64,000 nt of DNA from Bacillota bacterium (GTDB taxonomy: Bacteria; Bacillota; Desulfitobacteriia; Desulfitobacteriales; JAJXUE01), in assembly GCA_021811155.1 (NCBI GenBank), contig JAJZPO010000001.1, positions 1,683-65,682 on the forward strand. The letters are read 5' to 3'. A program made the position numbers and the translations under genes. Below the pieces are notes generated by a model. It saw only the letters and a program-made list of their open reading frames with translations, was not told the origin of the DNA and searched no databases. Shown one piece after another: positions 1 through 26,358 of this stretch (position 1 is the first letter of the stretch; every line of letters starts with the position of its first letter).

Positions 1-253
1 CCACAATTCACAATGAGACGACTTAACAGCAGACCTGCTCAACAAATTTGTGTCCTATCCGAATAAGCGTTCTGCTGAGGGTGTCCTAACCGCAATGAAT
101 TTTTCTGAAATAGAAGGAAAATCCTAAGAGATAAAGAATATAATATTCATATAATGGACCAATCAACCAGACCAATATAACGCTGAGCAGGGTCGAAACG
201 TGCTTAGAGCTGAGAGAAGGCGACGGACCTGGGCGGGGAAGAGGGCATACAAT

Positions 254-283
254 CGAACCTCGAACCTCGAACTTCGAACTTCG
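254..283. repeat. Tandem heptamer array (CGAACCT x2, CGAACTT x2)
   Basis: Four perfectly phased 7-nt units read directly at 254-281 plus a partial unit. It is the reverse complement of the AGGTTCG array at 25962-25996. Confidence 0.85.
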
Positions 284-299
284 CAAAGGGGGTGTGGGG

Positions 300-1250
300 G
301 TGAAATTGGAGAAAAAAAGCGGCATTCCATATTACATTCAGCTGAAGGAGCAAATCCTGAAAAACATTACTTCGGGCCAATGGCCGCCAGGGTACAAGCT
401 GCCGACGGAGCGCGAACTGGCGGGAGAATTGGGGGTAAGCCGGAACACTGTAGGCCAGGCGTACCAGGAACTTGAGGGCGAAGGCGTAATCAGTTCGGCC
501 CAGGGGCGGGGGACTTTTGTCACCGGCGCCGGGGCGGTCCTGCAGCGGGAGAGTCGCAAGGAGAAAGTGCTGCGCATCGTGGACGCCGCCATGGAAGAAG
601 CGGTAAGCCTGGGATTCAGCATCGATGACTTCGTATCCTTTGTCCACGTGCGCGGCATGGAGAAAAAAGCTGCTTTGAGCCGGCTCAAGGTTGCTTTTGT
701 GGAGTCGAACCGGGATCAGCTGCTGGAGTTCGAGCGCGAGGCTTATCTCGGACCGGAAGTTGCCATTGTCCCGGTCAGGCTGGAAGCCTTGACATCCGAG
801 CCGGGCCGGACCCGGGAGAGGCTGGGGGCCATGGACATGATAGTGACTACCCTCTACCACCTGAGTGCCGTGAAAAGCTTTCTTTCCGGCCAAAAGACCC
901 CGGTGATCGGGATCAGCCTGGAACCGAAACTGGAGACCATGGTGCGCATTGCCCGCCTGCCCGCATCTGAGCCCCTGGCCCTGGTGTGCGAGAGCGAGGG
1001 GTTCGCTGACAAGGTCCGTTCGGTTTTGAGCCAGGCAGGGATCTACCACGAGCTGGAGACAGTGCTGGCAAGGGATGAGAAAGACCTGGCAGCCTCACTG
1101 GCGGGACGGAGCGCGGTAGTTGCCTGTTCTTCCCGCAAAGCCCAGGCAGCAAAACTGGCTCCCGGGGCTGAGATTATCGAGTTTCGCACTTACCCGGACG
1201 CGGGTTCGCTAAACCTGCTGCGCAGCGCTCTGCTGGAACTGCGCAAGTGA
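300..1250 (+). CDS. GntR-family transcriptional regulator
   Basis: ORF 294-1250. N-terminal winged HTH of GntR type (YKLPTERELAGELGVSRNTVGQAYQELEGEGVISSAQGRGTFV). SD AAAGGGGG at 285-292 favours GTG 300 over GTG 294. The C-terminal effector domain (~240 aa) is not assigned. Confidence 0.85.
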   Translation: MKLEKKSGIPYYIQLKEQILKNITSGQWPPGYKLPTERELAGELGVSRNTVGQAYQELEGEGVISSAQGRGTFVTGAGAVLQRESRKEKVLRIVDAAMEEAVSLGFSIDDFVSFVHVRGMEKKAALSRLKVAFVESNRDQLLEFEREAYLGPEVAIVPVRLEALTSEPGRTRERLGAMDMIVTTLYHLSAVKSFLSGQKTPVIGISLEPKLETMVRIARLPASEPLALVCESEGFADKVRSVLSQAGIYHELETVLARDEKDLAASLAGRSAVVACSSRKAQAAKLAPGAEIIEFRTYPDAGSLNLLRSALLELRK

Positions 1251-1494: not shown

Positions 1495-1962
1495 GTGGAC
1501 AAACCAACCTTGGTCCTGGGTGTGATCGGGGCCGATGTTCACGCCGTCGGCAACCGGATTCTGGATTACGCTTTTACCCAGGCCGGTTTCCAGGTAATAA
1601 ATATCGGAGTCCTGGCATCCCAGGAAGAGTTTATCAATGCAGCCATCGAAACTGACGCCCAGGCGCTCCTGGTTTCCTCCCTTTACGGCCACGGGGAAAT
1701 CGACTGCCGGGGGCTGAGGGAAAAATGTGAAGAAGCCGGCATCGGGGACATCCTTATATATGTGGGCGGCAACCTGGTGGTGGGGAAACAGGACTTCGGC
1801 GAGGTGGAGCAGCGCTTTCTTGAGATGGGATTCGACCGGGTATACCCGCCGGGGATTATGCCGGAGCGGCCTATCGCCGATTTGAAGCGGGACTTGGGTC
1901 TCGAGGAAGGAGCCGGTGGTGGGGAACATCCTGCTCATGGACTTCGGCAGCACCTACACTAA
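1495..1962 (+). CDS. glmS: Glutamate mutase (methylaspartate mutase) sigma/S subunit, B12-binding
   Basis: Colinear with clostridial MutS/GlmS ([19 protein letters not shown] with DxHxxG cobalamin motif, [29 protein letters not shown]). SD GGAGGAG at 1482-1488 then GTG 1495; the track ATG 1459 is probably too long. The 3' end overlaps the next gene by 47 nt. Confidence 0.9.
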
Positions 1963-3313
1963 AGTTGCGCTGGCCGACACGGTCAAGTGTGAAATTATGG
2001 GCACTGCCAAGGCTCATACCACGGTGGCCAGCAATATTATGCTGGGGTTAAACGAAGCCCTGGGCAAATTAGGGGTGCAGGGACCCTTTGAAAAAAGACT
2101 TGCCTGCAGCAGCGCCGCAGGCGGCCTTAAGATGGTGGCAGTGGGCCTCGTAAAGGACCTCACAGCTGAGGCGGCACGCCGCGCGGCCTTGGGAGCGGGG
2201 GCCAGAGTCCTGGATGTATTCAGCCATGAGATGACGGATAAGGACCTGGAGAGAATCACTGACCTCAAGCCCGAGATCATCCTCCTCGCCGGCGGCACAG
2301 ACGGGGGCAACAAGGAAATAATCCTGAAAAACGCCCGGACCCTGGCCCGTTTGCCCGTGAGCCTGCCGGTAGTGGTGGCGGGGAACCGGGTGGCGGCGCC
2401 GGAGGCGGCGGAAATCCTCAAGTCCAGGCACGACCCTGTCGTAATCTCCGGCAATGTGATGCCGGAACTGAATGTCCTCCGGGTGGACGAAGCGCGGCTG
2501 GCTATCCGGGAGCTGTTCCTGGCGCAAATTGTCAAGGCTAAGGGGCTGGAGCTGGCGGAGGAGTTTTCCGGCCAGGTCTTGATGCCTACCCCGGCCGCGG
2601 TTTTGAAGGCGGCGGAACTCCTGGCCCGGGGTTGCGGCGATGAGCCGGGGCTGGGCGAGCTTATGGTGGTGGATGTGGGCGGAGCAACCACTGATGTGCA
2701 CTCCATCGCCGTGGGGGACCCTTCCAAAGCGGGGGTGAGTTTGAAAGGGTTGCCCGAGCCTTATGCCAAGCGCACGGTGGAAGGGGATCTGGGGATGCGC
2801 TACAGTTCCATGGCCCTTTTCGAGGCGGCGGGCCGCCGGCTGACCGGCTACCTCGGGACGGACGCGGAAAGCCTCAGGGGATACATCGAGAGTCTCACCC
2901 GTAAGCCGGACTACCTGGCCCAGACGGAGGGAGAAAAGAAAATCGACTCGGGGTTGGGGAGGATCGCGGTGGAAATAGCGGTGGAAAGGCACTGCGGCGC
3001 TTTGGAAGTAATTTATACTCCATTTGGTGCATCCTATATACAGCACGGCAAGGACCTCACTCCTCTAAGAACTGTGATCGGCACAGGGGGAGTGCTGGCG
3101 GGAAATCCGGCGGCGCTGGAAATCCTGCAGGGTGCAGCTTTCGCGCCGGCTGCGCCAAACCTGTTAAAACCGCAGCAGCCCGAGTATTATCTGGATTCCA
3201 GCTACATCATGGCAGGGATGGGGCTTTTGGCGGAGAGCGATCCTCTGGCTGCCCTGAAGATTATGAAAAAGTACATAACGCGTTTAGGAGGAGATCAGCA
3301 TGGAAGTCACTAA
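1916..3313 (+). CDS. glmL: Glutamate mutase reactivase/chaperone MutL/GlmL
   Basis: N-terminal [18 protein letters not shown]-type ATPase motif. The gene sits between the S and E subunit genes as in Clostridium. SD GAGGAAGGAG at 1902-1911 precedes GTG 1916/1919. Confidence 0.85.
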
Positions 3314-4751
3314 CCGGCGTCTGGACCAGGATGAGTTCGAACGGGAGCGGCAGGAAGTTTTGCGCCAGTGGATGACCGGGGGCGAAGTGGACCTGGCTGA
3401 GGCGGTGGAGTATCAGAAGAACCTGCCCAGGCACAAGGTGCTGGCTTACAAGCTGGAGCAGGGTAAGGAACAGGGTATCACCTACGCCCAGCCCCGGGCG
3501 GGAGTGGCCCTAATCAATGAGCATATCGAGCTCTTGCGCTTTTTGCAGGATGAGGGCGGGGCTGACATGCTTCCCACCACCATAGACTCCTACACCAGGC
3601 AGAACCGTTACACCGAAGCACAAGGGGGCATCGAGGAGAGCCGCACTGTGGGGCGCTCCATGCTGAACGGCTTTCCCGCCGTGAACCATGGAGTGAATGC
3701 CTGCCGCAGGGTGGTGGAGTCAGTCAATGTGCCAGTACAGGTGCGGCACGGCACTCCTGATGCCAGACTCCTGGCCGAGATAACTCTTGCCGGCGGGTTT
3801 ACGGACTTTGAGGGTGGTGGAATTTCTTACAATATCCCCTATGCCAAGGATGTTCCGCTGGCAGACACCATCCGGCACTGGCAGTATGTGGACCGCCTGG
3901 TGGGGATGTACGAGGAGAAGGGGGTACGCATCAACCGGGAGCCCTTCGGCCCCCTGACAGGAACTCTGGTGCCGCCCTGCATCTCCCATGCCGTAGCTGT
4001 CATTGAGGCCGTCCTGGCAGTGGAACAGGGCGTGAAAAGCCTTACCCTGGGCTACGGCCAGTGCGGCAACCTCCTGCAGGACGTGGCTGCGGTCCATACC
4101 CTCACGCAACTAGCGGAGGAATATCTTGCGAAGCTGGGGCTGGGCCCGGTAAGCCTGACCACGGTATTTCACCAGTGGATGGGAGGCTTTCCCCAGGACG
4201 AGGCCAAGGCCTACGGCGTGATTTCCTGGGGTGCGGCCACCGCTGCCCTGGCCAAAGCGAGCAAAGTAATTGTTAAAACTCCCCATGAAGCCTTGGGCAT
4301 CCCCACCAAAGAAGCCAATGCTGCGGGTATTCGCGCTACCAAGCAGGTCCTGAACATGCTGAAAGACCAGCGCCTGCCCCGCACCGAGGAGCTGAAGGCG
4401 GAAGAAGATATCATCCGGGCGGAGACCAGGGCCATTCTGGACAAGGTGCTGGAACTGGGGGATGGAGACATGGCCCTCGGGGCTGTGCGCAGTTTCCAGG
4501 CCGGAGTTATCGATGTGCCTTTTGCTCCCAGCAGGTTTAACGCCGGCAAAATCCTGCCGGCCCGGGACCACCAGGGTGCGGTGCGGATTCTCGACTTCGG
4601 CAACGTGCCCTTTGGACAGGAAATCAGGCAGTTCCACCAGGAGATGATCGGGAAGCGGGGCAAGGCCGAATCGCGCGACCCCTCCTTCCAGATGGTGATC
4701 GACGACATCTATGCTATTGGGAAAGGGATGCTTGTAGGGAGACCCAGATAG
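3300..4751 (+). CDS. glmE: Glutamate mutase (methylaspartate mutase) epsilon/E subunit
   Basis: 483-aa ORF of the expected size, in S-L-E gene order. SD GGAGGAG at 3286-3292. 14-nt overlap with glmL. Confidence 0.9.
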
Positions 4752-6142: not shown

Positions 6143-6182
6143 GGGTCGGGAGTCAGAAGTCAGGAGTCAGGAGTCAGAATGG
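6143..6182 (+). repeat. Tandem heptamer array (GGGTCGG GAGTCAG AAGTCAG GAGTCAG GAGTCAG AATGG)
   Basis: Begins immediately after the mal stop codon. Period-7 repetition read directly. Confidence 0.85.
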
Positions 6183-6270
6183 TTTTAGTATGCTTATACT
6201 GCGATTGGGATCTTCGCATTGCTCTGAAGAAAGACCCATGGATCTTGGGGCCTGAAGAAAGGGATAAGGC

Positions 6271-7245
6271 GTGAAAATTGGGCTAACCACCACTGTGCCG
6301 GTGGAAGTGATTTTCGCCGCGGGCCATACTCCCGTGGACATCAACAATATATTTATCGGTGATCAGAACCCCATGCACCTGGTGGAGGAAGCGGAGATTG
6401 CCGGTTACCCGCGCAACGTGTGCGGCTGGATCAAGGGCCTCTATGCTACCGTGCTGCGCGAGGAGGATATCCGGGCCGTGGTGGCTGTGACCCAGGGTGA
6501 CTGCTCCAACACCCATGCCCTGATGGAGACCTGGCAGCACAAGGGGATCGAAATCATTCCCTTTGCTTTTCCCTATGACCGGGACTACGACATGCTGAAG
6601 CTCCAGATTGAGAAGCTGATACAGGTTTTGGGCACGGATTGGGAGCAGACGGTCAAGTGGAAGAAAAATTTGGACGAGGTGCGCAGCCTTGCCTGGGAGC
6701 TGGACCGGCTGACATGGGAAGAGAACCGGGCGACCGGGTTTGAAAACCACCTGTGGCAGGTATCCAGCAGCGACTTCAACGGGGATCCGGACAAATTTGC
6801 CCGGGACCTGGCAGGAGCGCTGGCGGAGGCCCGGGCCAGAGAGCCCCTGGCCCCGGCCCTGCGCCTCGGCTTTATTGGGGTGCCGCCAATAGTGCCTGAG
6901 TTGTACGATTACCTGGAGGCCCAGGGGGCCAGGGTGGTGTTCAATGAGGTGCAGCGCCAGTTCAGCATGCCTTTTCAGGTGGAGGACCTGGTGGAGCAGT
7001 ACCGCCTCTACACCTACCCCTACAATGTCTTCGGCAGGATTGAAGATATCAAGCGCCAGGCTGAGCTGCGCCGCCTGGACGGGTTGATCCACTATACCCA
7101 GAGCTTTTGTTTCCGGCAGATTGAGGACCTGATTATCCGCCAGGAAATCGATTTGCCGATTCTCACCCTGGAGGGGGACAGCCCCACCCGCCTGGACGCC
7201 CGCAGCAAGATGCGGCTGGACTCCTTCATCGAGATGCTTAAATAG
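6271..7245 (+). CDS. 2-hydroxyacyl-CoA dehydratase family (HgdB/BcrB-like, HGD-D) Fe-S protein, single subunit
   Basis: 324 aa. N-terminus GLTTTVPVEVIFAAGHTPV and three spaced Cys (NVCGW, GDCSN, SFCFRQ) as in the D-component of ATP-activated radical dehydratases. Only one such subunit gene is present. Confidence 0.7.
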   Translation: MKIGLTTTVPVEVIFAAGHTPVDINNIFIGDQNPMHLVEEAEIAGYPRNVCGWIKGLYATVLREEDIRAVVAVTQGDCSNTHALMETWQHKGIEIIPFAFPYDRDYDMLKLQIEKLIQVLGTDWEQTVKWKKNLDEVRSLAWELDRLTWEENRATGFENHLWQVSSSDFNGDPDKFARDLAGALAEARAREPLAPALRLGFIGVPPIVPELYDYLEAQGARVVFNEVQRQFSMPFQVEDLVEQYRLYTYPYNVFGRIEDIKRQAELRRLDGLIHYTQSFCFRQIEDLIIRQEIDLPILTLEGDSPTRLDARSKMRLDSFIEMLK

Positions 7246-7265
7246 GCTCTGGGGCAATTCTTTTT

Positions 7266-7291
7266 GGTCGGAATTCAGGAGTCAGAATGGG
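7266..7291 (+). repeat. Heptamer array (GGTCGGAATTCAGGAGTCAGAATGGG)
   Basis: Lies 21 nt after the stop at 7245. Same terminal GAGTCAGAATGG as the arrays at 6143, 7542 and 50396. Confidence 0.8.
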
Positions 7292-7308
7292 TTAAGCCTG
7301 AATCAAGG

Positions 7309-7334
7309 GTGTCAGGGGGACTGTCCCCGTGACA
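7309..7334. repeat. Palindromic repeat GTGTCA-GGGGGACTGTCCCC-GTGACA
   Basis: Imperfect palindrome read directly. Sister copies at 10136-10164 and 50560-50586. Confidence 0.8.
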
Positions 7335-7393
7335 TTGCATGCCGCTACGCGGCACCACTTATGAATGAAACGAGAGCTTGCTAGCAGCAGAGT

Positions 7394-7506
7394 CGTTTGA
7401 TATATCCGGAGAGCGCGATTTTATTTGAAGCGTCCTCACCTTGCGCGATAGCGTTTCGAATCAGAGGACGGTTCAAATTCATGAGCGCCGGAGGATATAT
7501 CAAACG
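7394..7506. repeat. Long imperfect hairpin (~45-nt arms) in the dehydratase-activase spacer
   Basis: CGTTTGATATATCC...ATTTGAAGCGTCCTC pairs with GAGGACGGTTCAAAT...GGATATATCAAACG. The right arm carries the family core (GAGGACGGTTC, 7464-7474). Confidence 0.7.
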
Positions 7507-7541
7507 GACCCCAGCAGACCCGAACTGACCCAATGTTTCAG

Positions 7542-7565
7542 GGCAGGAGTCAGGAGTCAGAATGG
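7542..7565 (+). repeat. Heptamer array (GGCAGGAGTCAGGAGTCAGAATGG)
   Basis: Direct repeat of the 7266-7291 array. It flanks the long hairpin on the other side. Confidence 0.8.
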
Positions 7566-7586
7566 TTTTGGAAGGGATGTTGGAGT

Positions 7587-8345
7587 TTGACTGTAAGTTG
7601 CGGGATTGACCTGGGCAGCCGCAGTGTTAAAGTGGCTGTCCTGCAGGATGAAAAGATACTGGAACTGAAAACCTTCGATACCATTGAGTTTTACCGGAAT
7701 TACAGCCGCCGGGTTGAGGGTGATTTAAGGGTGGATCTGTCCGGACTGGGGGTACCGGAGACGGACAGGCTGGTCTCCACCGGTTATGGGCGCAATGCCC
7801 TGAACCTGGCCGGGGCCAGGGTAATCCCGGAAATCAAGGCTCATCTCCTGGGAGCAATTTTCCAAACCGGGCTCAAGGACTTCACCCTGCTTGACATGGG
7901 AGGTCAGGACAGCAAGATCATCAAGGTGCAGCGGGGCAGAATGGCGGACTTTTTGACCAATGACAAGTGTGCCGCGTCCACGGGCAGGTACCTGGAGAAC
8001 ATGGCCAATGTCCTGGGTGTCACGCTGGAAGAGCTGGGCAGGTACTGGCAGGAGCCGGTAGAGCTTAATTCCACCTGTGCCGTGTTCGGTGAAAGCGAAC
8101 TTATTGGAAGAATTGTGGACGGCCATGACATAGGAAATCTCGCGGCAGGGGTAAACTATACGATTTTCCGGCGGATTCAGCCCATGCTCAGACAGTTGAT
8201 GAGCCCGGTCATCGTCTTTACCGGCGGGGTGGCAGGCAACTTGGCCCTGCGGCGGATTATTGAGAGCGAGACCGGGGCCGAGGTTGTGGTGCCGGAACAT
8301 CACCAGCACAACGGGGCCATAGGAGCGGCGGTACAGAAGCTATGA
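7587..8345 (+). CDS. Acyl-CoA dehydratase activase (HgdC/BcrAD/BadFG-family ATPase)
   Basis: SCGIDLGSRSVKVAVL N-terminal ASKHA motif, DKCAASTGRYLE and STCAVFGESE cluster-Cys motifs. SD GGAAGGGA at 7571-7578 then TTG 7587; the track ATG 7533 lies inside the repeat array. Confidence 0.85.
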   Translation: MTVSCGIDLGSRSVKVAVLQDEKILELKTFDTIEFYRNYSRRVEGDLRVDLSGLGVPETDRLVSTGYGRNALNLAGARVIPEIKAHLLGAIFQTGLKDFTLLDMGGQDSKIIKVQRGRMADFLTNDKCAASTGRYLENMANVLGVTLEELGRYWQEPVELNSTCAVFGESELIGRIVDGHDIGNLAAGVNYTIFRRIQPMLRQLMSPVIVFTGGVAGNLALRRIIESETGAEVVVPEHHQHNGAIGAAVQKL

Positions 8346-8403
8346 GGCAGGAATCGCGGGTCGGAAATCGGCTTGAGGGTAATAAGCTAGAGGTGATGCA
8401 AAC

Positions 8404-9786
8404 ATGATTGATGAAATTCGGGTTCTTTCACCCACGGCGATTTTGGGGTATGGGTTTCCGCTTGCCTCCTTTGAGGCGGGGCTGGACCGTAACCCCCATG
8501 TGATTGCTGTGGATGCCGGTTCGACTGACCCGGGACCCTATTACCTGGGCTCAGGCCATTCCTTCACGGACCGGACTGCGGTCAAACGGGACCTGGAGGC
8601 AATGCTGGTTGCCGGTCGCAGGCTGAATATCCCGGTAATAATCGGTACGGCGGGAGGTTCCGGCGCTAACTCCCACCTGGACTGGTGCCTGGAGATTGTG
8701 CGGGAGTTGGCGACTGAACACGGGCTCAGTTTTAAGCTGGCGGTGATTGAGGCTGAAATCCCGAAACGGGAGCTGTTGCGCCGCTTCGAGCGGGGTGAAA
8801 TCAAACCCCTGCCGCCGGGCGGGGAATTGTCGCGGGAAGACCTGGAACAAAGCACCGCGGTTGTGGGACAGATGGGCATGGAGCCCTTTATCAAGGCCCT
8901 GGAAGCCGGAGCAGAGGTGATTTTGGCCGGTCGTTCCTATGATCCGGCGGTATTTGCCGCTTACCCCGTGCTCAGGGGCTTTGACCGGGCCCTGGCCCTG
9001 CACATGGGAAAAATCCTGGAGTGCGCCTCTATTGCCGCTACGCCGGGCAGCGGCAGCGACTGTATGATGGGGTACCTGGGGCGGGACCACTTCCGGCTGG
9101 AACCACTAAACCCGATGCGCAAATGCACCGTTACCTCGGTGGCGGCCCATACTCTGTATGAAAAGACCAACCCTTACCTGCTGCCTGGCCCGGGGGGGAC
9201 CCTGGACTTAAGGGAAACCACCTTTGAACAGGTGGAGGAGCGGGTGGTCAAAGTGGCGGGAAGCAAGTTTATTCCTGCTGAGCCTTACACCATCAAGTTG
9301 GAAGGGGCGAGACTGGCGGGTTACCGCACCGTGTCCATCGCCGGGGCCAGGGACCCGGTCTTCATCGCCAAAGTGGATGAAATTATCCAGGGAGTGAGGG
9401 AAAGGGTGGCTGACAATTTCCGCGCCCTGGAGGGAAAGTACCGCTTGATTTTCCGTCTCTACGGCAGAGATGGGGTCATGGGGGACCTGGAACCGCTGCT
9501 GGAACCCGCCTCCCACGAGCTGGGGATAATCATCGAAGCTGTGGCGGAAACCCAGGAGGAGGCCAACACGGTATGCAGTTTTGCCCGCTCCACCATGCTG
9601 CATTATGGCTATCCCGGCCGCATGGCCACGGCGGGCAACCTGGCTTTTCCCTATTCTCCTTCGGATTTCAAGGCGGGGGAAGTCTATCGTTTTGCTGTCC
9701 ACCACCTGTTGGAAGTCAAGAATCCCGTTGAGCTTTTCCCCATGCGCTTTGAGGATATCCCGGGGGTGCGAGGTGAAAATCGGTGA
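8404..9786 (+). CDS. AtuA-like (DUF1446 superfamily) protein, function unknown
   Basis: 460 aa. Central EPFIKALEAGAEVILAGRSYDPAVF and GKILECASIAATPGSG resemble AtuA-family signatures. SD GAGGTGA at 8390-8396. Confidence 0.6.
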   Translation: MIDEIRVLSPTAILGYGFPLASFEAGLDRNPHVIAVDAGSTDPGPYYLGSGHSFTDRTAVKRDLEAMLVAGRRLNIPVIIGTAGGSGANSHLDWCLEIVRELATEHGLSFKLAVIEAEIPKRELLRRFERGEIKPLPPGGELSREDLEQSTAVVGQMGMEPFIKALEAGAEVILAGRSYDPAVFAAYPVLRGFDRALALHMGKILECASIAATPGSGSDCMMGYLGRDHFRLEPLNPMRKCTVTSVAAHTLYEKTNPYLLPGPGGTLDLRETTFEQVEERVVKVAGSKFIPAEPYTIKLEGARLAGYRTVSIAGARDPVFIAKVDEIIQGVRERVADNFRALEGKYRLIFRLYGRDGVMGDLEPLLEPASHELGIIIEAVAETQEEANTVCSFARSTMLHYGYPGRMATAGNLAFPYSPSDFKAGEVYRFAVHHLLEVKNPVELFPMRFEDIPGVRGENR

Positions 9787-10106
9787 AAAGAGCGCTTTTG
9801 CCTGAGTTGGCGGAAGTAATCCGCAGCAAGAATGCCGGGCCCTACGAACTGACCTTTGACATCATCTTTAAGACCAGGGAAATCTTTGAGCAAGTCGCGG
9901 CGCGAAAACTGATCACACCCGAGCTGATCGCCAAACTGTACAAGATTCCGCCGGAAAGAGTGATTTCTGTAGTGGAATTTGCCCCCGCCAAGGCCATCAA
10001 GGCTACCATCGTCCGGCCCCTGGCCTGCGGCGATGTGGGGGACAGCGACGTCTACGGCGCCCAGCAGCACGCGCCCCTGCTGGGACTGGAAGTAGAGTGG
10101 GAGTAG
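9783..10106 (+). CDS. DUF4387-like small protein, partner of the AtuA-like protein
   Basis: 107 aa (LAEVIRSKNAGPYELTFDIIFK...DVYGAQQHAPLL). GTGA start/stop overlap with the preceding gene implies translational coupling. Confidence 0.6.
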   Translation: MKRALLPELAEVIRSKNAGPYELTFDIIFKTREIFEQVAARKLITPELIAKLYKIPPERVISVVEFAPAKAIKATIVRPLACGDVGDSDVYGAQQHAPLLGLEVEWE

Positions 10107-10219
10107 CAGAAGTCAGGAGTCAGGAGTCAGAATAAAGTGTCAGGGGGACTGTCCCTGTGACACTCTGGTTCATTCATCAGTGGTGCCGTGAAGCGGCATG
10201 CAAGTCTGAATTCCGACCC
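10107..10219. repeat. Composite repeat: forward heptamer array, GTGTCA palindrome, GAATGAA/GCATGCCGC module, reverse heptamer array
   Basis: CAGAAGTCAGGAGTCAGGAGTCAGAAT (10107-10133), palindrome (10136-10164), a module that is the reverse complement of 7336-7372, then AGTCTGAATTCCGACCC (10203-10219). The ends are inverted relative to each other. Confidence 0.75.
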
Positions 10220-10257: not shown

Positions 10258-11118
10258 GTGAAAACGATCCACACTGATGAGATCATCCCTGTTGTGGAGC
10301 GTCTCTGCATGGAGGCTAACTATTTCCTGGGGGATGATATGGTCGCGGCTTTGCAAAGGGCCGCCTCAGCCGAGGAAAATCCCGCAGGAGCGGCTATCCT
10401 CAGTCGGCTGGTGGAGAATGCGGAGATCGCCAGGAGTGAAGAAGCGCCCATGTGCCAGGACACGGGCATGGCGGTGATTTTTGCGGAGGTGGGCCAGGAC
10501 CTGCACATTGAGGGCATGGGACTTACCGACGCCATCAATCAGGGTGTGCGCCAGGGCTACAGCAAGGGCTACCTGCGCAAATCGGTGGTGAAAGACCCCA
10601 CCCTGAACCGGGCCAACACAGGAGATAACACCCCTGCTATCATTCACTATGACATCGTGCCGGGGGACGAACTCAAAATCACCTTGGCCCCTAAAGGATT
10701 TGGCAGTGAAAACATGGGCGGGATCAAAATGTGCAAACCTTCGGAAGGCCTGGACGGAGTCATCAATTTCGTGGTGGACACGGTTGACAAGGCCGGCGGC
10801 AATCCCTGCCCGCCAATTGTGGTGGGAGTCGGAGCAGGCGGCGACCTGGAGAAGTGCGCCATCCTGGCCAAGAAGGCCTTGCTCCGCTCCATCGGGGAGC
10901 ACAATCCCGACCCGGAATGGCGCAAGGTGGAGGAAACCATCCTGGAGAGGATCAACAAACTGGGGATAGGGCCCCAGGGGCTGGGCGGGACCCAGACCGC
11001 TCTGGCCGTGTTCATCGAGACCTATCCCACCCATATCGCCGGTATGCCCGTGGCTGTCAACATCAACTGCCATGCGGCCCGGCACAAGGAAGCCGCGCTG
11101 AAAGGGAGGGACGCCTAA
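10258..11118 (+). CDS. Class I Fe-S hydro-lyase alpha subunit (FumA N-terminal/TtdA type); mesaconase candidate
   Basis: VKTIHTDEI start matches the N-termini of this family. Contains the CQDTG Fe-S ligand motif. SD GAGGTGG at 10243-10249 then GTG 10258; track start is 10246. Confidence 0.85.
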   Translation: MKTIHTDEIIPVVERLCMEANYFLGDDMVAALQRAASAEENPAGAAILSRLVENAEIARSEEAPMCQDTGMAVIFAEVGQDLHIEGMGLTDAINQGVRQGYSKGYLRKSVVKDPTLNRANTGDNTPAIIHYDIVPGDELKITLAPKGFGSENMGGIKMCKPSEGLDGVINFVVDTVDKAGGNPCPPIVVGVGAGGDLEKCAILAKKALLRSIGEHNPDPEWRKVEETILERINKLGIGPQGLGGTQTALAVFIETYPTHIAGMPVAVNINCHAARHKEAALKGRDA

Positions 11119-11675
11119 TGGCCGGTGAGATCATGCTGCAAACTCCTCTGACCCAGGATAAGGTACAGAAGCTGAGGGCGGGGGATGCCGTTCTCATAAG
11201 CGGCACTATTTACACCGGGCGGGATGCGGCCCACAAGAAGATGGTGGAGGCCCTGGCCCGCGGGGAAGAACTGCCTTTTGATGTCAAAGACCAGATTATC
11301 TACTACGTCGGGCCCAGCCCGGAGAAGCCAGGCAAGCCCATCGGCTCCGCCGGCCCCACCACCAGCTACCGCATGGATTCCTACGCGCCGAAGCTCATCG
11401 CTCTGGGCCAGACCGGGATGCTGGGCAAAGGCTGGCGCGCACCGGAAGTTATTGAAGCCATGAAAAAATACGGCGCTGTCTACTTCGCTGCCATAGGCGG
11501 AGCCGGGGCCTACATAGCCAGATGCATCAAAGCCTCAGAGGTAATTGCTTACCCGGAACTGGGACCTGAGGCTGTGCGCAAGCTTACTGTGGAGAACCTG
11601 CCCGCCATCGTGGCGATTGACGCCCAGGGCAACAATATCTACGAGCTGGGCAAGGCCAAATACCGCAAGACATGA
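11118..11675 (+). CDS. Class I Fe-S hydro-lyase beta subunit (FumA C-terminal/TtdB type)
   Basis: MAGEIMLQTPL...ISGTIYTGRDAAHKKM...GKGWRAPEV. TAATG stop/start overlap with the alpha subunit. The upstream part of track ORF 10854-11675 is an out-of-context extension. Confidence 0.85.
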   Translation: MAGEIMLQTPLTQDKVQKLRAGDAVLISGTIYTGRDAAHKKMVEALARGEELPFDVKDQIIYYVGPSPEKPGKPIGSAGPTTSYRMDSYAPKLIALGQTGMLGKGWRAPEVIEAMKKYGAVYFAAIGGAGAYIARCIKASEVIAYPELGPEAVRKLTVENLPAIVAIDAQGNNIYELGKAKYRKT

Positions 11676-11704: not shown

Positions 11705-11750
11705 AAAAGGCGGCTTAAACTGTTCCAACAAGTTTAAGCCGCCTTTTCCT
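11705..11750 (+). terminator. Rho-independent terminator (16-bp perfect stem)
   Basis: AAAAGGCGGCTTAAAC (11705-11720) pairs with GTTTAAGCCGCCTTTT (11732-11747). It lies 30 nt after the stop at 11675. Confidence 0.8.
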
Positions 11751-12065
11751 GTGTACCTTAAGAAAGCATTGACTCGGCAAATTTAGCCGTTTATATCAAA
11801 CATCCTCCAAAGGACTAGGACTCTGACAGGCATTTTCTCTGGAGTGCAGAGTGGTTAATATTAATCCTTTGTACATTTTTAATGCAGATTTAATAATCAA
11901 TATTTAAAATACAACATGGACGTATTTTCTCCATTTAACTATTTGAGCTGAAATTCGGCAATAATTGAATAAAGGCGTTTTTACTTGTACAATGCGATAT
12001 TCTGATAGGAGTTGGCTTTTTGAAATTGACGCAGACATGAAATGCGCACACGGAGTGATACTTAA

Positions 12066-13502
12066 TTGCCAATAAGAAACAGATCCAAACGAAAGAAAAT
12101 TATTTTTCTAGTTTACGCAACTGTATTCGCCTTTTTCATCTTTAAAATGTTCTTCTATGCACACTTCGTAGGCAGGTTTCCCGATGAAGTTGCACATATT
12201 TCCTACATAGCTTATTTGGAACAAGAGCATAAAATTATTCCTGATTTTAAAAGCATGACTATCTTAATCCCAAAAGAAAAAAATAACGATTTGTCAGCTG
12301 TAAAAGATATTCTTGTGTCCTACCCCGGCCCGTATATATTCGGCGAAAGTGTGAACTACCTTGGTCATCCTCCGCTCTATTATCAGCTCATGCGGTTGTC
12401 CGGAGGGGTAAAAGTTCAAAATGGGGTTGCAAGTATTGATATCTGGCGGCTCAGGTACTTTAATATGGTCCTAAGCGCTTTTGCCATGCTGCTTATTTTT
12501 TATATCGGTTATAGCCGAATTCGAGATATTCCGATTCTTCACCTGTTGTTTGCCACAATTTGTGTATCTGTGCCAATGCTCGCATATGTCTCCGCCGGGG
12601 TAAATAACGACAACCTGGCTCTGCTCGGGGTATCCTTGTCCGTCTTGGGCTTGCTGCGTTTCTCCGAACACAAACGTACTTTTTTCACTTATAGCTTGTT
12701 AAGTATTGGACTTTATATTTCTGTTATGTCCAAGCTGACAGCAGGACTCATCGTGCTGCTCGCGTTTGCATTGTACCTTGTTTTTGCGCTCATAACGGAA
12801 AAGAACCTGCGATTTCTAAAATCAAAGGAATTTCTTGTGACCCTGCCTGTCTATCTCATAGCTGCTGCTTATTTTGCGTTAGTTCATATGCAAACCGGCA
12901 GTTTTCAGCCCAGCTATCGCTTGTTGGATCTACAGGGTTACCTTGCATCCGATTTTTATGTTCCTCCTGCCAGTCGAACCCATATGGATTTCTTACAGTA
13001 TGCAAAATACTATATTGCAGCTTTCCTGGGTACGTGGACGGGTATCGCGTCCAACGTTTCCTTGTTGAAAGATGAGACAGCGCTTTATTCCCTGCCTCAA
13101 ATTGGGCTGGTTGGGCTCCTGGTTCTGCCGCTCTTGCTGAGTCTACAGTTAGGTAAAAACAGGCCCGAACGGCCGGCAGCGCTGGCGTTGTTTGCTTTCT
13201 ACCTCGGCCTGATAATTACCATGATAGTTCAATTTTTGCGCGCTTATTTGGAATACAAAAACATTTCCGGATATCTTGGGGGATATCAGTCCCGTTATTA
13301 CCTTTGCGGAATTGCCGCAATAGCGTTGGCAACTGTTTTTGCTGCCGGCAACATCTACGGCAAGGAAACGGGGAAACAAGGGCGCGGGCCGGCAAGAATC
13401 ATAAGACAAATGACCGTCCAATTTGCCGCTTTTGCCTTCGTTCTTTTACTGCTGTATGAGGATTTTGGCTTTTTTCTCAAGCATTTTACGGATTATCTTT
13501 AA
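12066..13502 (+). CDS. GT-C fold membrane glycosyltransferase (ArnT/PMT/YfhO-like)
   Basis: 478 aa and polytopic. First extracytoplasmic loop has FVGRFPDEVAHISY (acidic DE motif). TTG start behind GGAGTG. AT-rich codon usage differs from the flanking regions. Confidence 0.65.
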   Translation: MPIRNRSKRKKIIFLVYATVFAFFIFKMFFYAHFVGRFPDEVAHISYIAYLEQEHKIIPDFKSMTILIPKEKNNDLSAVKDILVSYPGPYIFGESVNYLGHPPLYYQLMRLSGGVKVQNGVASIDIWRLRYFNMVLSAFAMLLIFYIGYSRIRDIPILHLLFATICVSVPMLAYVSAGVNNDNLALLGVSLSVLGLLRFSEHKRTFFTYSLLSIGLYISVMSKLTAGLIVLLAFALYLVFALITEKNLRFLKSKEFLVTLPVYLIAAAYFALVHMQTGSFQPSYRLLDLQGYLASDFYVPPASRTHMDFLQYAKYYIAAFLGTWTGIASNVSLLKDETALYSLPQIGLVGLLVLPLLLSLQLGKNRPERPAALALFAFYLGLIITMIVQFLRAYLEYKNISGYLGGYQSRYYLCGIAAIALATVFAAGNIYGKETGKQGRGPARIIRQMTVQFAAFAFVLLLLYEDFGFFLKHFTDYL

Positions 13503-13533
13503 TCCCAAAAATAACGTTGGTGGTGCAAATTAA

Positions 13534-14589
13534 ATGAAATTGATAATTCAGATACCCTGTTACAACGAGGAAAAGACCCTGGCCCAGACATTCAATGATC
13601 TTCCCCAAGCCATATCCGGCGTTGACAGTATTGAATACCTGATTATCAATGACGGCAGCACGGACAGGACTGTACAAGTGGCCAAGAAATTGGGCATCCA
13701 ACATGTGGTTACCTTTAAGCGCAACAGAGGACTGGCCGCGGGTTTCATGGCTGGAATCGAAGCCTGTCTGCGCCTGGGAGCGGACATAATTGTAAACACT
13801 GACGCAGACAATCAGTATCGCGGCGAGGACATTGCCAGAATTGTTAAGCCAATAATTGACGGCAAGGCGGAAATTGTGGTTGGCAGCCGCCCTATTGACG
13901 AGATTGAGCACTTTTCAAGACGGAAAAAATTGCTCCAGCATCTGGGAAGTTGGGTGGTGCGGTTAGCTTCGGACACCGACATCCCCGACGCGCCCAGCGG
14001 TTTCAGGGCTTACTCCAGAGAGGCTGCCATGCGGCTTAACGTTGTAAATCAATACACCTATACCTTGGAGACCATAATACAAGCCGGGCATAACAGGATT
14101 GCCATTACCTCCGTACCCATCCGCACCAACCCTGAGACGCGCAAGTCACGCCTATTCAAGAGCACATTTGGTTATGTTAAACGCTCAGCCAGTACGATCA
14201 TTCGCGCATTTATGATGTACAAGCCCCTGCGTTTTTTTGGCATCCTGGGATCTCTCATTTTCCTAATGGGTCTCTTGATAGCGGTGCGCTTTCTGTTTCA
14301 CTACCTGTTTAGCACCGGTACGGGACATTTGCAGTCGCTTATTCTCTCGGCAGTATTGATGCTGTTAGGCTTCCAAACATTCGTTGCGGGTTTGCAGGCA
14401 GATATCATAGCGGCTAACCGCAAGCTGTTGGAGGATATTCAATACCGGGTGCGCAACCTTGACTATGCTTCCGGTACCGAAGCTGGCATGAAGAGGATAA
14501 AGAATGAGCAGAATCAATACAGCGAAAAACTATCTTACCACACGGGCCGGGGGAAAGAACGTTCTGTTCATTACCACCAAAAACATTGA
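13534..14589 (+). CDS. GT2 polyprenyl-phosphate glycosyltransferase (GtrB/CsbB/ArnC-like) with C-terminal TM helices
   Basis: IQIPCYNEE...INDGSTD...NTDADNQY (DXD) GT-A signatures, plus two C-terminal hydrophobic helices (FFGILGSLIFLMGLLIAV, LILSAVLMLLGFQTFVAGL). Confidence 0.8.
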   Translation: MKLIIQIPCYNEEKTLAQTFNDLPQAISGVDSIEYLIINDGSTDRTVQVAKKLGIQHVVTFKRNRGLAAGFMAGIEACLRLGADIIVNTDADNQYRGEDIARIVKPIIDGKAEIVVGSRPIDEIEHFSRRKKLLQHLGSWVVRLASDTDIPDAPSGFRAYSREAAMRLNVVNQYTYTLETIIQAGHNRIAITSVPIRTNPETRKSRLFKSTFGYVKRSASTIIRAFMMYKPLRFFGILGSLIFLMGLLIAVRFLFHYLFSTGTGHLQSLILSAVLMLLGFQTFVAGLQADIIAANRKLLEDIQYRVRNLDYASGTEAGMKRIKNEQNQYSEKLSYHTGRGKERSVHYHQKH

Positions 14590-15523
14590 TTACATACGAA
14601 ACACTCAGGAAATAGAGGCTCTCAGCAGCGCGAAATCCATCAAGGTTTTGGGATATCCAGATAAGGGTTATCTCTCCCGTCTCATCAAGGTTTACTTTAA
14701 GTTGATGACTTGGTCTATGAAACGGTACGATTTGGTTTATGTCGGTTTTGCCCCCCAGCTTATTATCCCTCTATTTGGCTGGCGGTTCAGGCACAAAATT
14801 GTTGTGCAGGATTTTTTCATCTCCCTCTACGATACCATGGTATGGGACCGAAAAAAGTTTAAAGACAAGGGCTTGGCCGCCAAAATTCTGGCCTGGCTGG
14901 ATAAATTCACTATTAACCGGGCAAACGCGGTGATAACTGATACCCTGGCCCACGCTGAATATTTTGTACGGGAGTTTGGTGTCGATCCTGGAAAGCTGAA
15001 GGTGCTGTACCTTGAGGCTGATCCGGTGATTTACTACCCACGTCAGGCGGTAAAACCTGTGGAATGGCAGAACAAGTTCGTAGTATTATATTTTGGCAGT
15101 GTACTCCCCCTCCAGGGAGTAGATACTGTTCTGGCGTGCGTCAAGCGGATGGAGGGTATTTCATCTGTAGTTTTTGATATTATTGGCCCGGTGGCGAAAA
15201 AAGATCTGCAGCAGTACGCAAAACTTCACAACGTCCGTTTTACTCCCTGGCTTTCCCAGGCGGACCTGGCTGAAAGGATTGCGGCGGCAGATTTGTGTCT
15301 TGCCGGCCATTTCAACAAAACTATCGCCAAAGCGTCCCGTACCATACCCGGCAAGGCGTATATATACCGCGCCATGGGCAGGCCTGTGATTTTAGGCGAT
15401 AACCCTGCCAATCGTGAACAGTTCAGCGAAGACAAGATGAATTTCTATGTTGAAATGGGCAGCGCCGGGAAGCTACAAGAAAAGATACTTTATGCCATGA
15501 GCTGTTTGGGGCTTAGTCATTAA
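14504..15523 (+). CDS. GT-B fold glycosyltransferase (family 1/4-like)
   Basis: 339 aa. NVLFITTKN first strand and a C-terminal GKAYIYRAMGRPVILGD nucleotide-sugar-binding region. ATG 14504 sits behind GAGGA. Overlaps the previous CDS by 86 nt. Confidence 0.65.
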   Translation: MSRINTAKNYLTTRAGGKNVLFITTKNIDYIRNTQEIEALSSAKSIKVLGYPDKGYLSRLIKVYFKLMTWSMKRYDLVYVGFAPQLIIPLFGWRFRHKIVVQDFFISLYDTMVWDRKKFKDKGLAAKILAWLDKFTINRANAVITDTLAHAEYFVREFGVDPGKLKVLYLEADPVIYYPRQAVKPVEWQNKFVVLYFGSVLPLQGVDTVLACVKRMEGISSVVFDIIGPVAKKDLQQYAKLHNVRFTPWLSQADLAERIAAADLCLAGHFNKTIAKASRTIPGKAYIYRAMGRPVILGDNPANREQFSEDKMNFYVEMGSAGKLQEKILYAMSCLGLSH

Positions 15524-15579
15524 ATCAAACAGTCTGTATGGCGCCGGCGTGGATAAAATCAGCAAGAAGTGAGTAGACC

Positions 15580-16500
15580 TTGAAAACTAAACTGCTTAAA
15601 TACGTTGGATACGGTGTTACAGTGGCGGCATTTGCCTTTCTGGCCAGATCCGTTGCATCAATGCATTTGGATTTTTCCCGCCTCATCAATCCCTTTGCTG
15701 CGGTAAGCTGCGGCTTAATACTCTCGCTTGGTTATGCCGGCATTGTTTACTTATCCGCTTATGCGTGGAAAATGGTTCTAGAATTCATCCGCGGGAGTAA
15801 AATCTCGTATCGGGATGTGACCGGTGTCTACATTAAGGCCAATCTGGGCAAGTATTTTCCCGGCAACGTAATGCACTTTGCAGGGCGCAACCTCCTGGCC
15901 GGTAAATTAGGATTTAAGCAGATGGATGTAACTTTCAGCAGCGCCGTTGAAGTCTTGGCCTTAATTGCGACTGCCGTCATTTGGTCTATACTTCTGGCTC
16001 TGCAGAGGTTTACTTCAATACTCGGAAATATCCTTAATAGGACAGATGCAGCGGTGTTTGGCGTAATCGCCGCTTTCTTGTTTGGAGCGGCGGTTCTGGG
16101 TTGGGCTGCCATAACAAAAGGCAGCTATCTCCAGAAATACAGGCGCTTTTTCACGCGCGGATTCCTCAAACTTCTCGGCAAGCTGTTCTCTGTCTACAGC
16201 CTGACTTTAATTATTCCGGGAATCTTTCTGGTGATGATATTCGCTCTGGTGCTTGGATTCCAGGTGACTCCGCAAAACGCTTTAGTCATAATATCGGCAT
16301 ACATCATCTCATGGGTGGCTGGGTTTATTGTCCCTGGGGCGCCAGGCGGCATGGGTGTTCGCGAGTCTGTTTTGCTCCTCGTGCTTGGACCAATGTATTC
16401 GGGTGATTTGGCGGTGTTGGCAGCAATACTTCACCGCCTGGCATCGATGTTAGGTGATGCAGCAGCCTTTCTGGTTGAATCGGGCAGACGCCCGAAGTGA
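15580..16500 (+). CDS. Flippase-like membrane protein (lysyl-PG synthase TM-region/UPF0104 family)
   Basis: 306 aa, about 8 TM segments. C-terminal VPGAPGGMGVRESVLLL motif is typical of this family. Confidence 0.6.
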   Translation: MKTKLLKYVGYGVTVAAFAFLARSVASMHLDFSRLINPFAAVSCGLILSLGYAGIVYLSAYAWKMVLEFIRGSKISYRDVTGVYIKANLGKYFPGNVMHFAGRNLLAGKLGFKQMDVTFSSAVEVLALIATAVIWSILLALQRFTSILGNILNRTDAAVFGVIAAFLFGAAVLGWAAITKGSYLQKYRRFFTRGFLKLLGKLFSVYSLTLIIPGIFLVMIFALVLGFQVTPQNALVIISAYIISWVAGFIVPGAPGGMGVRESVLLLVLGPMYSGDLAVLAAILHRLASMLGDAAAFLVESGRRPK

Positions 16501-16550
16501 AACTTAACATGAGACACCGCAGGGCATAATGAAAGGCAGGCTGGATAAAG

Positions 16551-17852: not shown

Positions 17853-17903
17853 TATATATCGATGAGGAAACGGTAGCCTATGCCTTCCGGATGGATGTCA
17901 ATT

Positions 17904-17952
17904 GCGAGAACACATGTGCCCCGCTTGTTTGGCGGGGCACATGTGTTCTCGC
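17904..17952. terminator. Bidirectional terminator hairpin (21-bp perfect stem)
   Basis: GCGAGAACACATGTGCCCCGC (17904-17924), loop TTGTTTG, GCGGGGCACATGTGTTCTCGC (17932-17952). Located between the convergent ugd and RND genes. Confidence 0.75.
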
Positions 17953-17968
17953 TGCAGCGAGGCTCGAC

Positions 17969-21436: not shown

Positions 21437-21569
21437 TCCTTTTCCTCCCAAACCACTTTCTTGCTTCACCAAGGGTATTACGCAACATGCCGCCGGATGT
21501 TCCACCTAGCGCCTGCAAATTATAGCTTATGCATTGTGTGCTTACCACAGTATATTATATCATGAGCTT

Positions 21570-21598
21570 GAGGAATTCAGGAGTCAGAAGTCAGAATA
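21570..21598 (+). repeat. Heptamer array (GAGGAATTCAGGAGTCAGAAGTCAGAATA)
   Basis: Period-7 units read directly in the RND/P-loop divergent spacer. Confidence 0.8.
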
Positions 21599-21650
21599 GG
21601 ACAAAGGGGACGGTTCCGTTGGACAAAGGGGACGGTTCCGTTTGTCCTAG
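21599..21650 (+). repeat. Tandem pair of conserved-core hairpin repeats (GGACAAA-stem type)
   Basis: GGACAAAGGGGACGGTTCCGTT occurs twice, followed by TGTCCTAG. Cores at 21606 and 21628. Confidence 0.85.
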
Positions 21651-23570: not shown

Positions 23571-23580
23571 GGGGTCAGCA

Positions 23581-24174: not shown

Positions 24175-24225
24175 ACTCAGGGGTCGGAACTCGGGGGTCA
24201 GAACTCAGAACTCAGGAGTCAGAAT
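24175..24225 (+). repeat. Heptamer array, 7 units (TCAGGGG TCGGAAC TCGGGGG TCAGAAC TCAGAAC TCAGGAG TCAGAAT)
   Basis: Starts at the first nt after the rdgB stop codon. Period 7 read directly. Confidence 0.85.
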
Positions 24226-24266
24226 AATTCTTTGCCATGTATTCCTCAGTTATGCCCTCGTGAAAC

Positions 24267-25875: not shown

Positions 25876-25952
25876 CGGGGTATAGCGCAGTTTGGTAGCG
25901 CGCCTGCCTTGGGAGCAGGAGGCCGGGGGTTCAAATCCCTCTGCCCCGACCA
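25876..25952 (+). tRNA. tRNA-Pro (anticodon UGG)
   Basis: CGGGGTA/TGCCCCG acceptor stem, anticodon loop CTTGGGA, GGTTCAAATCC T-arm, encoded CCA. Confidence 0.95.
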
Positions 25953-25961
25953 TAACTCGAT

Positions 25962-26136: not shown

Positions 26137-26145
26137 AAACAATAT

Positions 26146-26339: not shown

Positions 26340-26358
26340 GATAAAATTAATAAGTTTT

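Follow-up and report, generated by a model that had tools for sequence, protein, structure and literature searches.

A probable complete methylaspartate operon with a CmlAB-type citramalate lyase and a resident HgdB-like/activase pair in a Bacillota bacterium

The window analysed here is a stretch of 64,000 nucleotides from a Bacillota bacterium of the Desulfitobacteriales (JAJXUE01), taken from contig JAJZPO010000001.1 of assembly GCA_021811155.1 (positions 1,683 to 65,682 of the forward strand). It carries a glutamate mutase/methylaspartase operon in which the genes of an HgdB-like Fe-S protein, an HgdC-type activase, an AtuA-like protein and a DUF4387 protein stand between mal and the genes of a two-subunit Fe-S hydro-lyase. 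An earlier note, made from the letters alone, considered this operon to be devoid of a citramalate lyase and proposed that the four genes give mesaconate or citramalate a different fate. Our analysis suggests that the AtuA-like and DUF4387 proteins are very probably the two subunits of the citramalate lyase CmlAB, which would make the methylaspartate pathway in the window complete. The HgdB-like protein and its activase, hereafter the pair, seem to be a resident of the locus whose function is probably independent of that pathway.

The genes were identified by Pfam and NCBIfam profile searches with the NCBIfam equivalog cut-offs applied. The gene order, identities and coordinates proposed in the earlier note stood up to these searches, with all genes of the block from the GntR regulator to mesB lying on the plus strand (Table 1). 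Public gene calls for the same contig (metagenome-assembled genome (MAG) GCA_027420875.1, ENA assembly) concur with the genes of the block. The products of glmS, glmL, glmE and mal all exceed their equivalog cut-offs; the likely start of glmS is the GTG at 1495, preceded by the ribosome-binding site GGAGG, and the public call gives a protein of 155 aa. An orthologous GntR gene is found 5' of the glm genes in 15 related loci. The profile searches also confirmed the family membership of all four proteins encoded between mal and mesA, and the GTGA overlap by which cmlA and cmlB are translationally coupled was found at 9783-9786. The mesA and mesB genes overlap by TAATG, and the Fumerase and Fumerase_C domains are clear in MesAB; mesaconase and fumarase are inseparable by sequence because class I fumarases are promiscuous (PMC4682846). 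The terminator at the end of the block was recovered as well. The observation that the block contains no CitE/CitF-like gene also held: tblastn with Desulfosporosinus queries revealed no CitE, CitF, CitC, CitX or CitG in the 64-kb window, and the block gave no Pfam match to them. Neither was a second HGD-D paralogue found in the window, in agreement with the earlier description of a single-subunit protein.

Table 1. Features of the operon and of the flanking DNA, with positions in the window.
Feature	Position	Strand	Evidence or remark
GntR-family regulator (putative, of the operon)	294-1250	+	PF00392 E 8e-20; public call also PF27163 YmtS_Ross
glmS, glutamate mutase B12-binding subunit	1459/1495-1962	+	NF002612 227 bits vs cut-off 110
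glmL, glutamate mutase reactivase/accessory protein	1916-3313	+	NF040745 614 bits vs 475; PF13941 E 1e-168
glmE, glutamate mutase catalytic subunit	3300-4751	+	TIGR01503 768 bits vs 390
mal, 3-methylaspartate ammonia-lyase	4868/4889-6142 (likely start 4889)	+	TIGR01502 602 bits vs 286; MAAL_N, MAAL_C
Heptamer (GGAGTCA/AGAAGTC) repeat array	6145-6182		Member of dispersed repeat family
HgdB-like single-gene HGD-D family Fe-S protein	6271-7245	+	PF06050 E 3e-36
Repeat-filled structured spacer, HgdB-like gene to activase gene	7246-7586		Modules D1, D5, I1, I5; minimum free energy -130 kcal/mol, z -4.4
HgdC-type ATP-dependent activase ('archerase')	7587-8345	+	TIGR00241 E 4e-57, 194 bits vs 125
cmlA, probable CmlAB large subunit (AtuA/DUF1446 family)	8404-9786	+	PF07287 E 2e-23; PDB 9ERQ_A/9EVF E 1.9e-164
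cmlB, probable CmlAB small subunit (DUF4387)	9783-10106	+	DUF4387 E 1e-39; PDB 9ERQ_B E 2.5e-32
Composite repeat element	10107-10219		Heptamer array, 26-nt hairpin and 35-nt module inverted vs 7335-7369
mesA, alpha subunit, class I Fe-S hydro-lyase (mesaconase/fumarase)	10258-11118	+	PF05681 E 7e-117; NF004885 412 bits vs 276
mesB, beta subunit of mesaconase/fumarase (Fumerase_C)	11118-11675	+	PF05683 E 8e-63; public gene call
Intrinsic terminator, end of block	11705-11750	+	17-bp stem then U-run, dG -33 kcal/mol, z -6.8
Backbone genes c17 (conserved hypothetical), rph, rdgB/Ham1	21887-24174	+	Pfam RNase_PH, Ham1p_like; synteny maps

The conclusion that the operon does without a citramalate lyase did not survive, however. 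The AtuA-like protein of the window aligns over residues 5-445 of 460 with chain A of PDB entries 9ERQ and 9EVF, which carries the molecule name 'Citramalate lyase, subunit A (cmlA)', and the DUF4387 protein matches chain B, named 'Citramalate lyase, subunit B (cmlB)'. The operon thus does not miss citramalate cleavage, because the AtuA-like/DUF4387 proteins would be the citramalate lyase, and citramalate would keep its textbook fate of pyruvate and acetate. The earlier note is out of date in stating that such protein pairs lack an assigned reaction, since structures now name them as citramalate lyase subunits; its suggestion that they could be the cleaving activity of the pathway agrees with the CmlAB match.

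The CmlA orthologue of E. coli matches 9ERQ_A with an E-value of 1.7e-290 and is essentially the crystallised protein. Window and E. coli proteins are 55% (CmlA) and 52% (CmlB) identical, and cmlA and cmlB of E. coli overlap by 4 nt, as in the window. The gene order in E. coli, glmS-glmL-glmE-mal-cmlA-cmlB-symporter-fumD-cobO, is present in 1122 of 5426 complete genomes, where RefSeq names the two lyase genes 'acyclic terpene utilization AtuA family protein' and 'DUF4387 domain-containing protein', and this glm-cml cluster is without the HgdB-like/activase pair. E. coli 7/2 (NZ_CP023820.1; locus L086, 8536-10220) is one carrier of cmlAB.

Kronen and Berg (2015, PMC4682846) had already seen a DUF1446 gene downstream of mal, in E. 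coli O157:H7 and Dictyoglomus. For O157:H7 the authors reported that it was unclear what becomes of citramalate, and other candidates gave no citramalate lyase activity in their study. The cmlA gene of E. coli is the DUF1446 gene that they placed downstream of mal. A preprint of 2026 (bioRxiv 10.64898/2026.01.16.699985) reports that CmlAB of Raoultella planticola, supplied by the laboratory of I. Berg, cleaves citramalate directly to pyruvate and acetate; the growth and labelling of an E. coli acetyl-coenzyme A (CoA) auxotroph depended on cmlAB and mesaconate, with the host FumA being used. This preprint, in which the enzyme was employed, is the only literature found on CmlAB or its PDB codes, and citramalate cleavage without CoA or acyl carrier protein (ACP) is so far known for enterobacterial CmlAB only (PDB names; bioRxiv 10.64898/2026.01.16.699985). 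A literature search returned nothing on DUF4387, nor on AtuA together with citramalate lyase, and NCBIfam has no CmlA or CmlB model.

Independent information comes from related loci. A scan for relatives of the HgdB-like protein, with one genome per GTDB species, gave 551 matches, of which the best 80 loci were retained and their neighbours mapped by tblastn, clustering and Pfam. In Desulfosporosinus the gene order is GntR-murI-glmSLE-mal-HgdB-like-activase-citE-citF-citC-citX-citG-mesAB. The slot between the activase gene and mesAB turned out to hold citE-citF-citC-citX-citG in 10 of the 80 related loci and cmlAB in another 10, as it does in the window, and in none of the 80 do a Cit-type and a Cml-type lyase occur together. 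The exchange of citEF-citCXG for cmlAB is a textbook non-orthologous displacement. The citC, citX and citG genes are unnecessary because CmlAB replaces the ACP-dependent CitDEF-type lyase, and with its slot filled by cmlAB the window would encode the complete methylaspartate route. As a first step, GlmSE with its reactivase GlmL would convert glutamate to (2S,3S)-3-methylaspartate, which Mal would then deaminate to mesaconate. The two-subunit Fe-S hydro-lyase MesAB would hydrate mesaconate to (S)-citramalate, and the CmlAB heteromer of the AtuA-family and DUF4387 subunits would finally split citramalate directly into pyruvate and acetate.

The same loci show that the four genes, contrary to the assumption of the earlier note, are not one module. 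It is true that the extra genes recur beside glmSLE-mal elsewhere. However, E. coli has cmlAB without the pair, the D. hafniense locus has the pair and mesAB and no cmlAB, and in many Bacillota the pair stands with no glutamate genes nearby. Some Desulfitobacterium loci contain murI, the pair and mesAB without glm or mal, and the Desulforamulus locus contains glmSLE-mal and the pair only. In three MAGs of the Desulfitobacteriaceae (L020, L029 and L043) cmlA follows directly after the HgdB-like gene, the locus being without an activase gene, and in Ammonifex degensii (L088) insertion sequence/transposase genes occupy the activase position.

The HgdB-like protein contains three cysteines in total (C51, C78 and C280), which are invariant in 32 homologues. 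Three cysteines holding a [4Fe-4S] cluster with an open site are the signature of HadB/HadC-type proteins, whereas a double cubane is bound by a seven-cysteine motif with six cluster ligands (PMC7317905). A double cubane is thus impossible in the HgdB-like protein, because it has three cysteines instead of the seven-cysteine motif, and its identity as a double-cubane protein was ruled out (35 bits with the NF040772 double_cubane model vs. a cut-off of 350). Its AlphaFold (AF2) model, with a pLDDT of 88.7, is matched by Foldseek to DCCP 6ENO, HadC 3O3M_B/D, BzdNO and MbdON with a query TM-score (TMq) of 0.75-0.81 at an identity of 14-22%. The activase aligns with HgdC (1HUX, E 2e-38) and HadI (4EHT, E 9e-37), and both of its cluster-bridging cysteine motifs, NDKCAAsTGR and STCaVFgESE, are intact. 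Activases of the HgdC type supply electrons of very low potential (PMC7317905).

The two genes belong together. There is one HGD-D gene in each of the 80 related loci, and the activase gene adjoins it in 68 of them; the median gap is 8 nt in 69 related loci. Among the 50%-identity cluster representatives, fusions of the HgdB-like protein with the activase, 590-640 aa long, were seen (P0231, P0236, P0258, P0262, P0272, P0278 and others), and P0306 (826 aa) and P0315 (968 aa) have additional sequence at the N-terminus, about 160 and 360 aa long, without a Pfam match. As a clue to function, extra fused domains gave nothing beyond the activase among the HgdB-like relatives, plus one SpoIID-linked match. 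Neither the block nor the conserved neighbourhood was found to contain a CoA transferase or ligase (Pfam, synteny maps), and Pfam detected no corrinoid-binding motif or domain. To judge from these sequences, the pair is a self-contained two-component ATP-dependent electron-transfer couple, sometimes fused, and two defining features of the 2-hydroxyacyl-CoA dehydratases, a second subunit and a supply of CoA esters, are absent from it. The activase dimer would bridge a [4Fe-4S] cluster and use ATP hydrolysis to inject one electron into the HgdB-like protein, presumably a homodimer, where the three-cysteine [4Fe-4S] cluster with its open iron site would be the acceptor.

The pair has a chromosomal home of its own, and its identity stays at 60-70% in several classes of anaerobic Bacillota. 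The conserved neighbourhood reads c12-(YkuD or SCP2-permease)-gerM-amidase-murI-[HgdB-like-activase]-MBL (a metallo-beta-lactamase-fold protein like RNase Z)-c17-rph-rdgB-ysnB-tig-clpP-clpX, which we take to be the Bacillota counterpart of the gerM-racE-...-rph-ysnA-ysnB region of B. subtilis. In 47 of 81 loci murI is the gene directly upstream of the pair, the distance often being no more than about 20 nt, and rph/rdgB lie downstream in 34 loci. The pair occupies this murI-rph position in Pelotomaculum, Pelosinus, Desulforudis, Formimonas and others. Where glutamate genes are present, glmSLE(-mal) separates murI from the pair, and the lyase genes and/or mesAB come after the activase gene. At least one glutamate-pathway gene accompanies the pair in 23 of the 37 loci with both flanks complete, and none is found within 10 kb in the other 14. 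The glutamate genes would then have assembled around the pair, itself part of a conserved chromosomal backbone of anaerobic Bacillota. In related genomes c17-rph-rdgB come directly after the pair; in the window they are shifted by the glutamate genes and by an insert of about 10 kb of low GC content.

In Carboxydothermus hydrogenoformans Z-2901 (CP000141.1, L087, 5950-15172) and C. islandicus (L071) the genes murI-glmS-glmL-glmE-HgdB-like-activase-MBL-c17-rph-rdgB-ysnB overlap or abut one another, and glmSLE abuts the pair with no mal present; a glutamate mutase without mal may hint at a non-fermentative use of 3-methylaspartate. In two Thermoanaerobacteraceae MAGs (L051, 8514-9965; L062, 5425-6861) a lone full-length GlmE homologue (55% identical; PF06368, 628 bits) is encoded between murI and the HgdB-like gene, and no glmS, glmL or mal was found within 10 kb, even at an E-value of 10.

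Taken together, we consider the best explanation to be a complete methylaspartate operon with CmlAB, in which the pair resides at the locus and is functionally independent of the pathway; we would give it a probability of about two in three. The two parts differ in strength. The CmlAB identity and the completeness of the pathway are the much firmer part, and the functional independence of the pair, proposed from gene context, is favoured by a modest margin over its opposite. Several points weigh against the independence of the pair. Pathway genes stand on both sides of the pair, with glmSLE-mal always upstream and the lyase/mesAB always downstream, and in the HgdB-like tree this flanked arrangement recurs in five or more separate clades, mixed among clades without glm. 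The spacing from mal to the HgdB-like gene is operon-like (median 36 nt, with one overlap), a majority of the fully flanked loci (the 23 of 37 mentioned above) have a pathway gene, and in Carboxydothermus glmSLE abuts the pair even without mal. The sample behind all of these counts was drawn by way of the pair and ordered by similarity to a glm-linked query, so that they do not tell how often glm-mal clusters as a whole contain the pair. The CmlAB assignment, for its part, rests on PDB molecule names, one preprint using the enzyme and genomic context, and an identity of 55% to the characterised enterobacterial CmlA may leave room for a changed specificity.

The alternative that survives best, though we regard it as unlikely, is that the pair is wired to glutamate mutase or its pathway. 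The HgdB-like protein would be a minimal, three-cysteine, single-subunit member of the dehydratase/reductase superfamily, and the pair an ATP-driven reductase of ultra-low potential that repairs a cofactor; if this were true, the glutamate genes would have accreted on both sides of it for that reason. It might re-reduce the cob(II)alamin released by GlmL for re-adenosylation, by analogy with PduS of the pdu operons, the RACE/RACo proteins that serve corrinoid methyltransferases and the cobO gene of the E. coli cluster, and so be the missing reductase of the glm system, or it might re-reduce the labile Fe-S cluster of MesAB; action on a glutamate-derived metabolite is a further possibility. The glm genes do abut the pair, with glmE beside it in 24 of the 55 loci that reach at least 6 kb upstream and in no fewer than five clades, the Carboxydothermus and lone-glmE loci point the same way, and so does the tight spacing after mal. 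The E. coli cluster has the B12-maintenance gene cobO instead of the pair, and very low-potential electrons are what such activases deliver. However, in the 14 fully flanked loci without a nearby pathway gene the pair keeps its murI-rph position, and the clostridial and enterobacterial clusters function without the pair. No corrinoid-binding motif or domain was detected, the block contains no adenosyltransferase, and all of the association could stem from a single ancestral arrangement that was passed on vertically and later lost in some lineages.

Less likely again is a distinct reaction of the pair on a metabolite related to glutamate or the cell wall, outside the methylaspartate route. The frequent position of murI next to the pair is consistent with it, as is the repeated presence of glutamate mutase genes at the locus. 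In Pelosinus and its relatives (L056, L060, L065, L075, L080, L082 and L085) the pair was found in a different conserved gene set, in the order 4HBT thioesterase, murI, a 182-aa protein of unknown function, CofE-like, HgdB-like, activase, hydantoinase/oxoprolinase-like, histone-deacetylase-family and rph; the CofE-like protein resembles the F420 gamma-glutamyl ligase, and its neighbours around the pair also suit this proposal. On the other hand, the C. hydrogenoformans locus behaves as a housekeeping super-operon whose genes overlap all the way from murI to ysnB. Adjacency within it is weak evidence for a common function, the genes downstream of the pair (RNase Z-like MBL, rph, rdgB) serve RNA and nucleotide housekeeping, and no candidate substrate can be named. 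Finally, the proposal of the earlier note that ATP-primed radical chemistry on a mesaconate or citramalate derivative leads to a non-textbook fate, with the AtuA-like/DUF4387 proteins as activating or cleaving partner, is highly improbable. The four genes do share one strand in the stretch from mal to mesAB, without an intervening terminator, and the three cysteines of the HgdB-like protein match the open-site cluster signature found in ketyl-radical enzymes. However, the AtuA-like/DUF4387 proteins make up a citramalate lyase that stands alone and functions in E. coli where the pair is absent, each of the two modules is found in genomes independently of the other, the CoA transferase or ligase for the thioester that ketyl chemistry requires and the second dehydratase subunit are both lacking, and the pair is widespread without mesaconate or citramalate genes.

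With regard to transcription, no terminator-like sites were found in the intergenic gaps of the block, and the strong terminator follows mesB. A scan for promoter and terminator consensus sequences gave counts no higher than those of shuffled sequence, which neither supports nor excludes internal promoters, and Rfam, at gathering and E-value thresholds, gave no match to a riboswitch or other RNA family, either in the operon or in its spacers. A single transcript from glmS to the terminator is plausible, and the pair is probably co-transcribed with the glutamate genes.

The earlier note had described intergenic repeats located exactly at the junctions of the extra modules. The repeats are real: inside the operon they were found at 6145-6182, 7262-7290, 7537-7565 and 10107-10219. 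The searches did not return the 'degenerate array' at 8347-8379 as one of the family, however, and a role as marks of module junctions was ruled out, since the same repeats occur at other intergenic sites of the window (253-283, 1288-1302, 21573-21642, 24175-24227, 25957-25988, 33625-33786 and 50559-50585). The heptamer motif has 18 matches in the window vs. 0.11 expected, many of them outside the operon. The modules comprise tandem heptamers (GGAGTCA/AGAAGTC), a 26-nt hairpin, GTGTCAGGGGGACTGTCCCYGTGACA, and a 35-nt module that appears in opposite orientations at 7335-7369 and 10169-10203; the heptamers peak at 10.7 copies in 33625-33786, with an inverted partner array at 33758-33786. The repeats are a dispersed, genome-wide intergenic family and resemble elements of the repetitive extragenic palindromic (REP)/miniature inverted-repeat transposable element (MITE) type or of the short tandemly repeated repetitive (STRR) type. 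The spacer from the HgdB-like gene to the activase gene is long and structured, 341 nt vs. the median of 8 nt in the 69 related loci, because these repeats fill it. A public open reading frame (ORF) of 31 aa at 6179-6274, which runs from the heptamer repeat into the first codons of the HgdB-like gene, is probably spurious.

Further downstream, the insert between mesB and c17 (11760-21600) begins with a low-GC part (0.39-0.50) that carries two glycosyltransferase genes, a UDP-glucose dehydrogenase gene and two ORFs without a Pfam match; next comes an AcrB-family transporter gene on the minus strand (17969-21505). The insert is present at this position in no other locus examined. Beyond rdgB, five tRNA genes are clustered at 25876-26438.

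In general, these data remove a false lead, as the operon would represent a complete methylaspartate pathway and not a new fate of mesaconate or citramalate. Where AtuA-family/DUF4387 pairs stand beside mal, they should from now on be taken for CmlAB citramalate lyase. The replacement of citEF-citCXG by cmlAB in sister Bacillota provides clean, independent genomic support for that assignment, and the range of the CmlAB-type lyase would be extended beyond the Enterobacteriaceae into the Bacillota. The pair had already been drawn as 'HgdBC' in Fig. 4 of Kronen and Berg (PMC4682846), beyond which no mention of HgdBC beside glm genes was found in the literature. The locus is a Bacillota member of an already known operon type, plus this previously depicted accessory pair. 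A very conserved and compact ATP-dependent Fe-S couple, lying between murI and rph in many anaerobic Firmicutes, is a reasonable target for biochemical work.

In comparison with known systems, the clostridial route of C. tetanomorphum and C. tetani consists of glmSLE, mal, mesAB and a CitDEF-type citramalate lyase with CitCXG. The window would share its four reactions and has a two-subunit hydro-lyase of the same kind as its putative mesaconase, but in place of the ACP-dependent lyase and its three maturation genes it has the two genes cmlAB; the sister genus Desulfosporosinus keeps the clostridial-type CitEF-CitCXG in the very slot that cmlAB fills in the window. The CmlAB of the window belongs to the same families as that of PDB 9ERQ/9EVF and has subunits of the same size (about 456-460 aa and 105-107 aa). 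Like its enterobacterial counterpart, it is encoded with a 4-nt start/stop overlap and near glmSLE-mal and a class I fumarase/mesaconase; it differs in an identity of 52-60%, in its host, a Peptococcaceae/Desulfitobacteriaceae-like MAG of the Bacillota and no enterobacterium, and in a putative mesaconase of two subunits (MesAB) instead of the single-chain FumD, its activity being predicted from sequence. The E. coli O157:H7-type cluster, glmS-glmL-glmE-mal-DUF1446-DUF4387-gltP-fumD-cobO (Kronen and Berg 2015, PMC4682846), follows the same pathway logic with the same type of lyase. It differs from the window in having a transporter gene and cobO inside, no HgdB-like/activase pair, and a LysR regulator instead of GntR.

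The pair itself resembles DCCP and its reductase DCCP-R (C. hydrogenoformans CHY_0487/0488; PDB 6ENO, 7YYL) in combining a single HGD-D gene with an HgdC-type ATPase, and DCCP 6ENO is the best structural match of the HgdB-like protein (TMq 0.78, identity 21%); however, the latter has three cysteines in place of the seven-cysteine motif and is about 100 residues shorter. With HgdAB/HgdC, HadBC/HadI and the class I benzoyl-CoA reductases the pair shares the fold, the three-cysteine [4Fe-4S] signature and an activase with both cluster cysteines. In contrast to these 2-hydroxyacyl-CoA dehydratases and benzoyl-CoA reductases, to which its identity is 14-19%, it has one subunit gene and not an alpha/beta couple, no CoA transferase or ligase in its operon, and a genomic context of its own, the murI-rph backbone.

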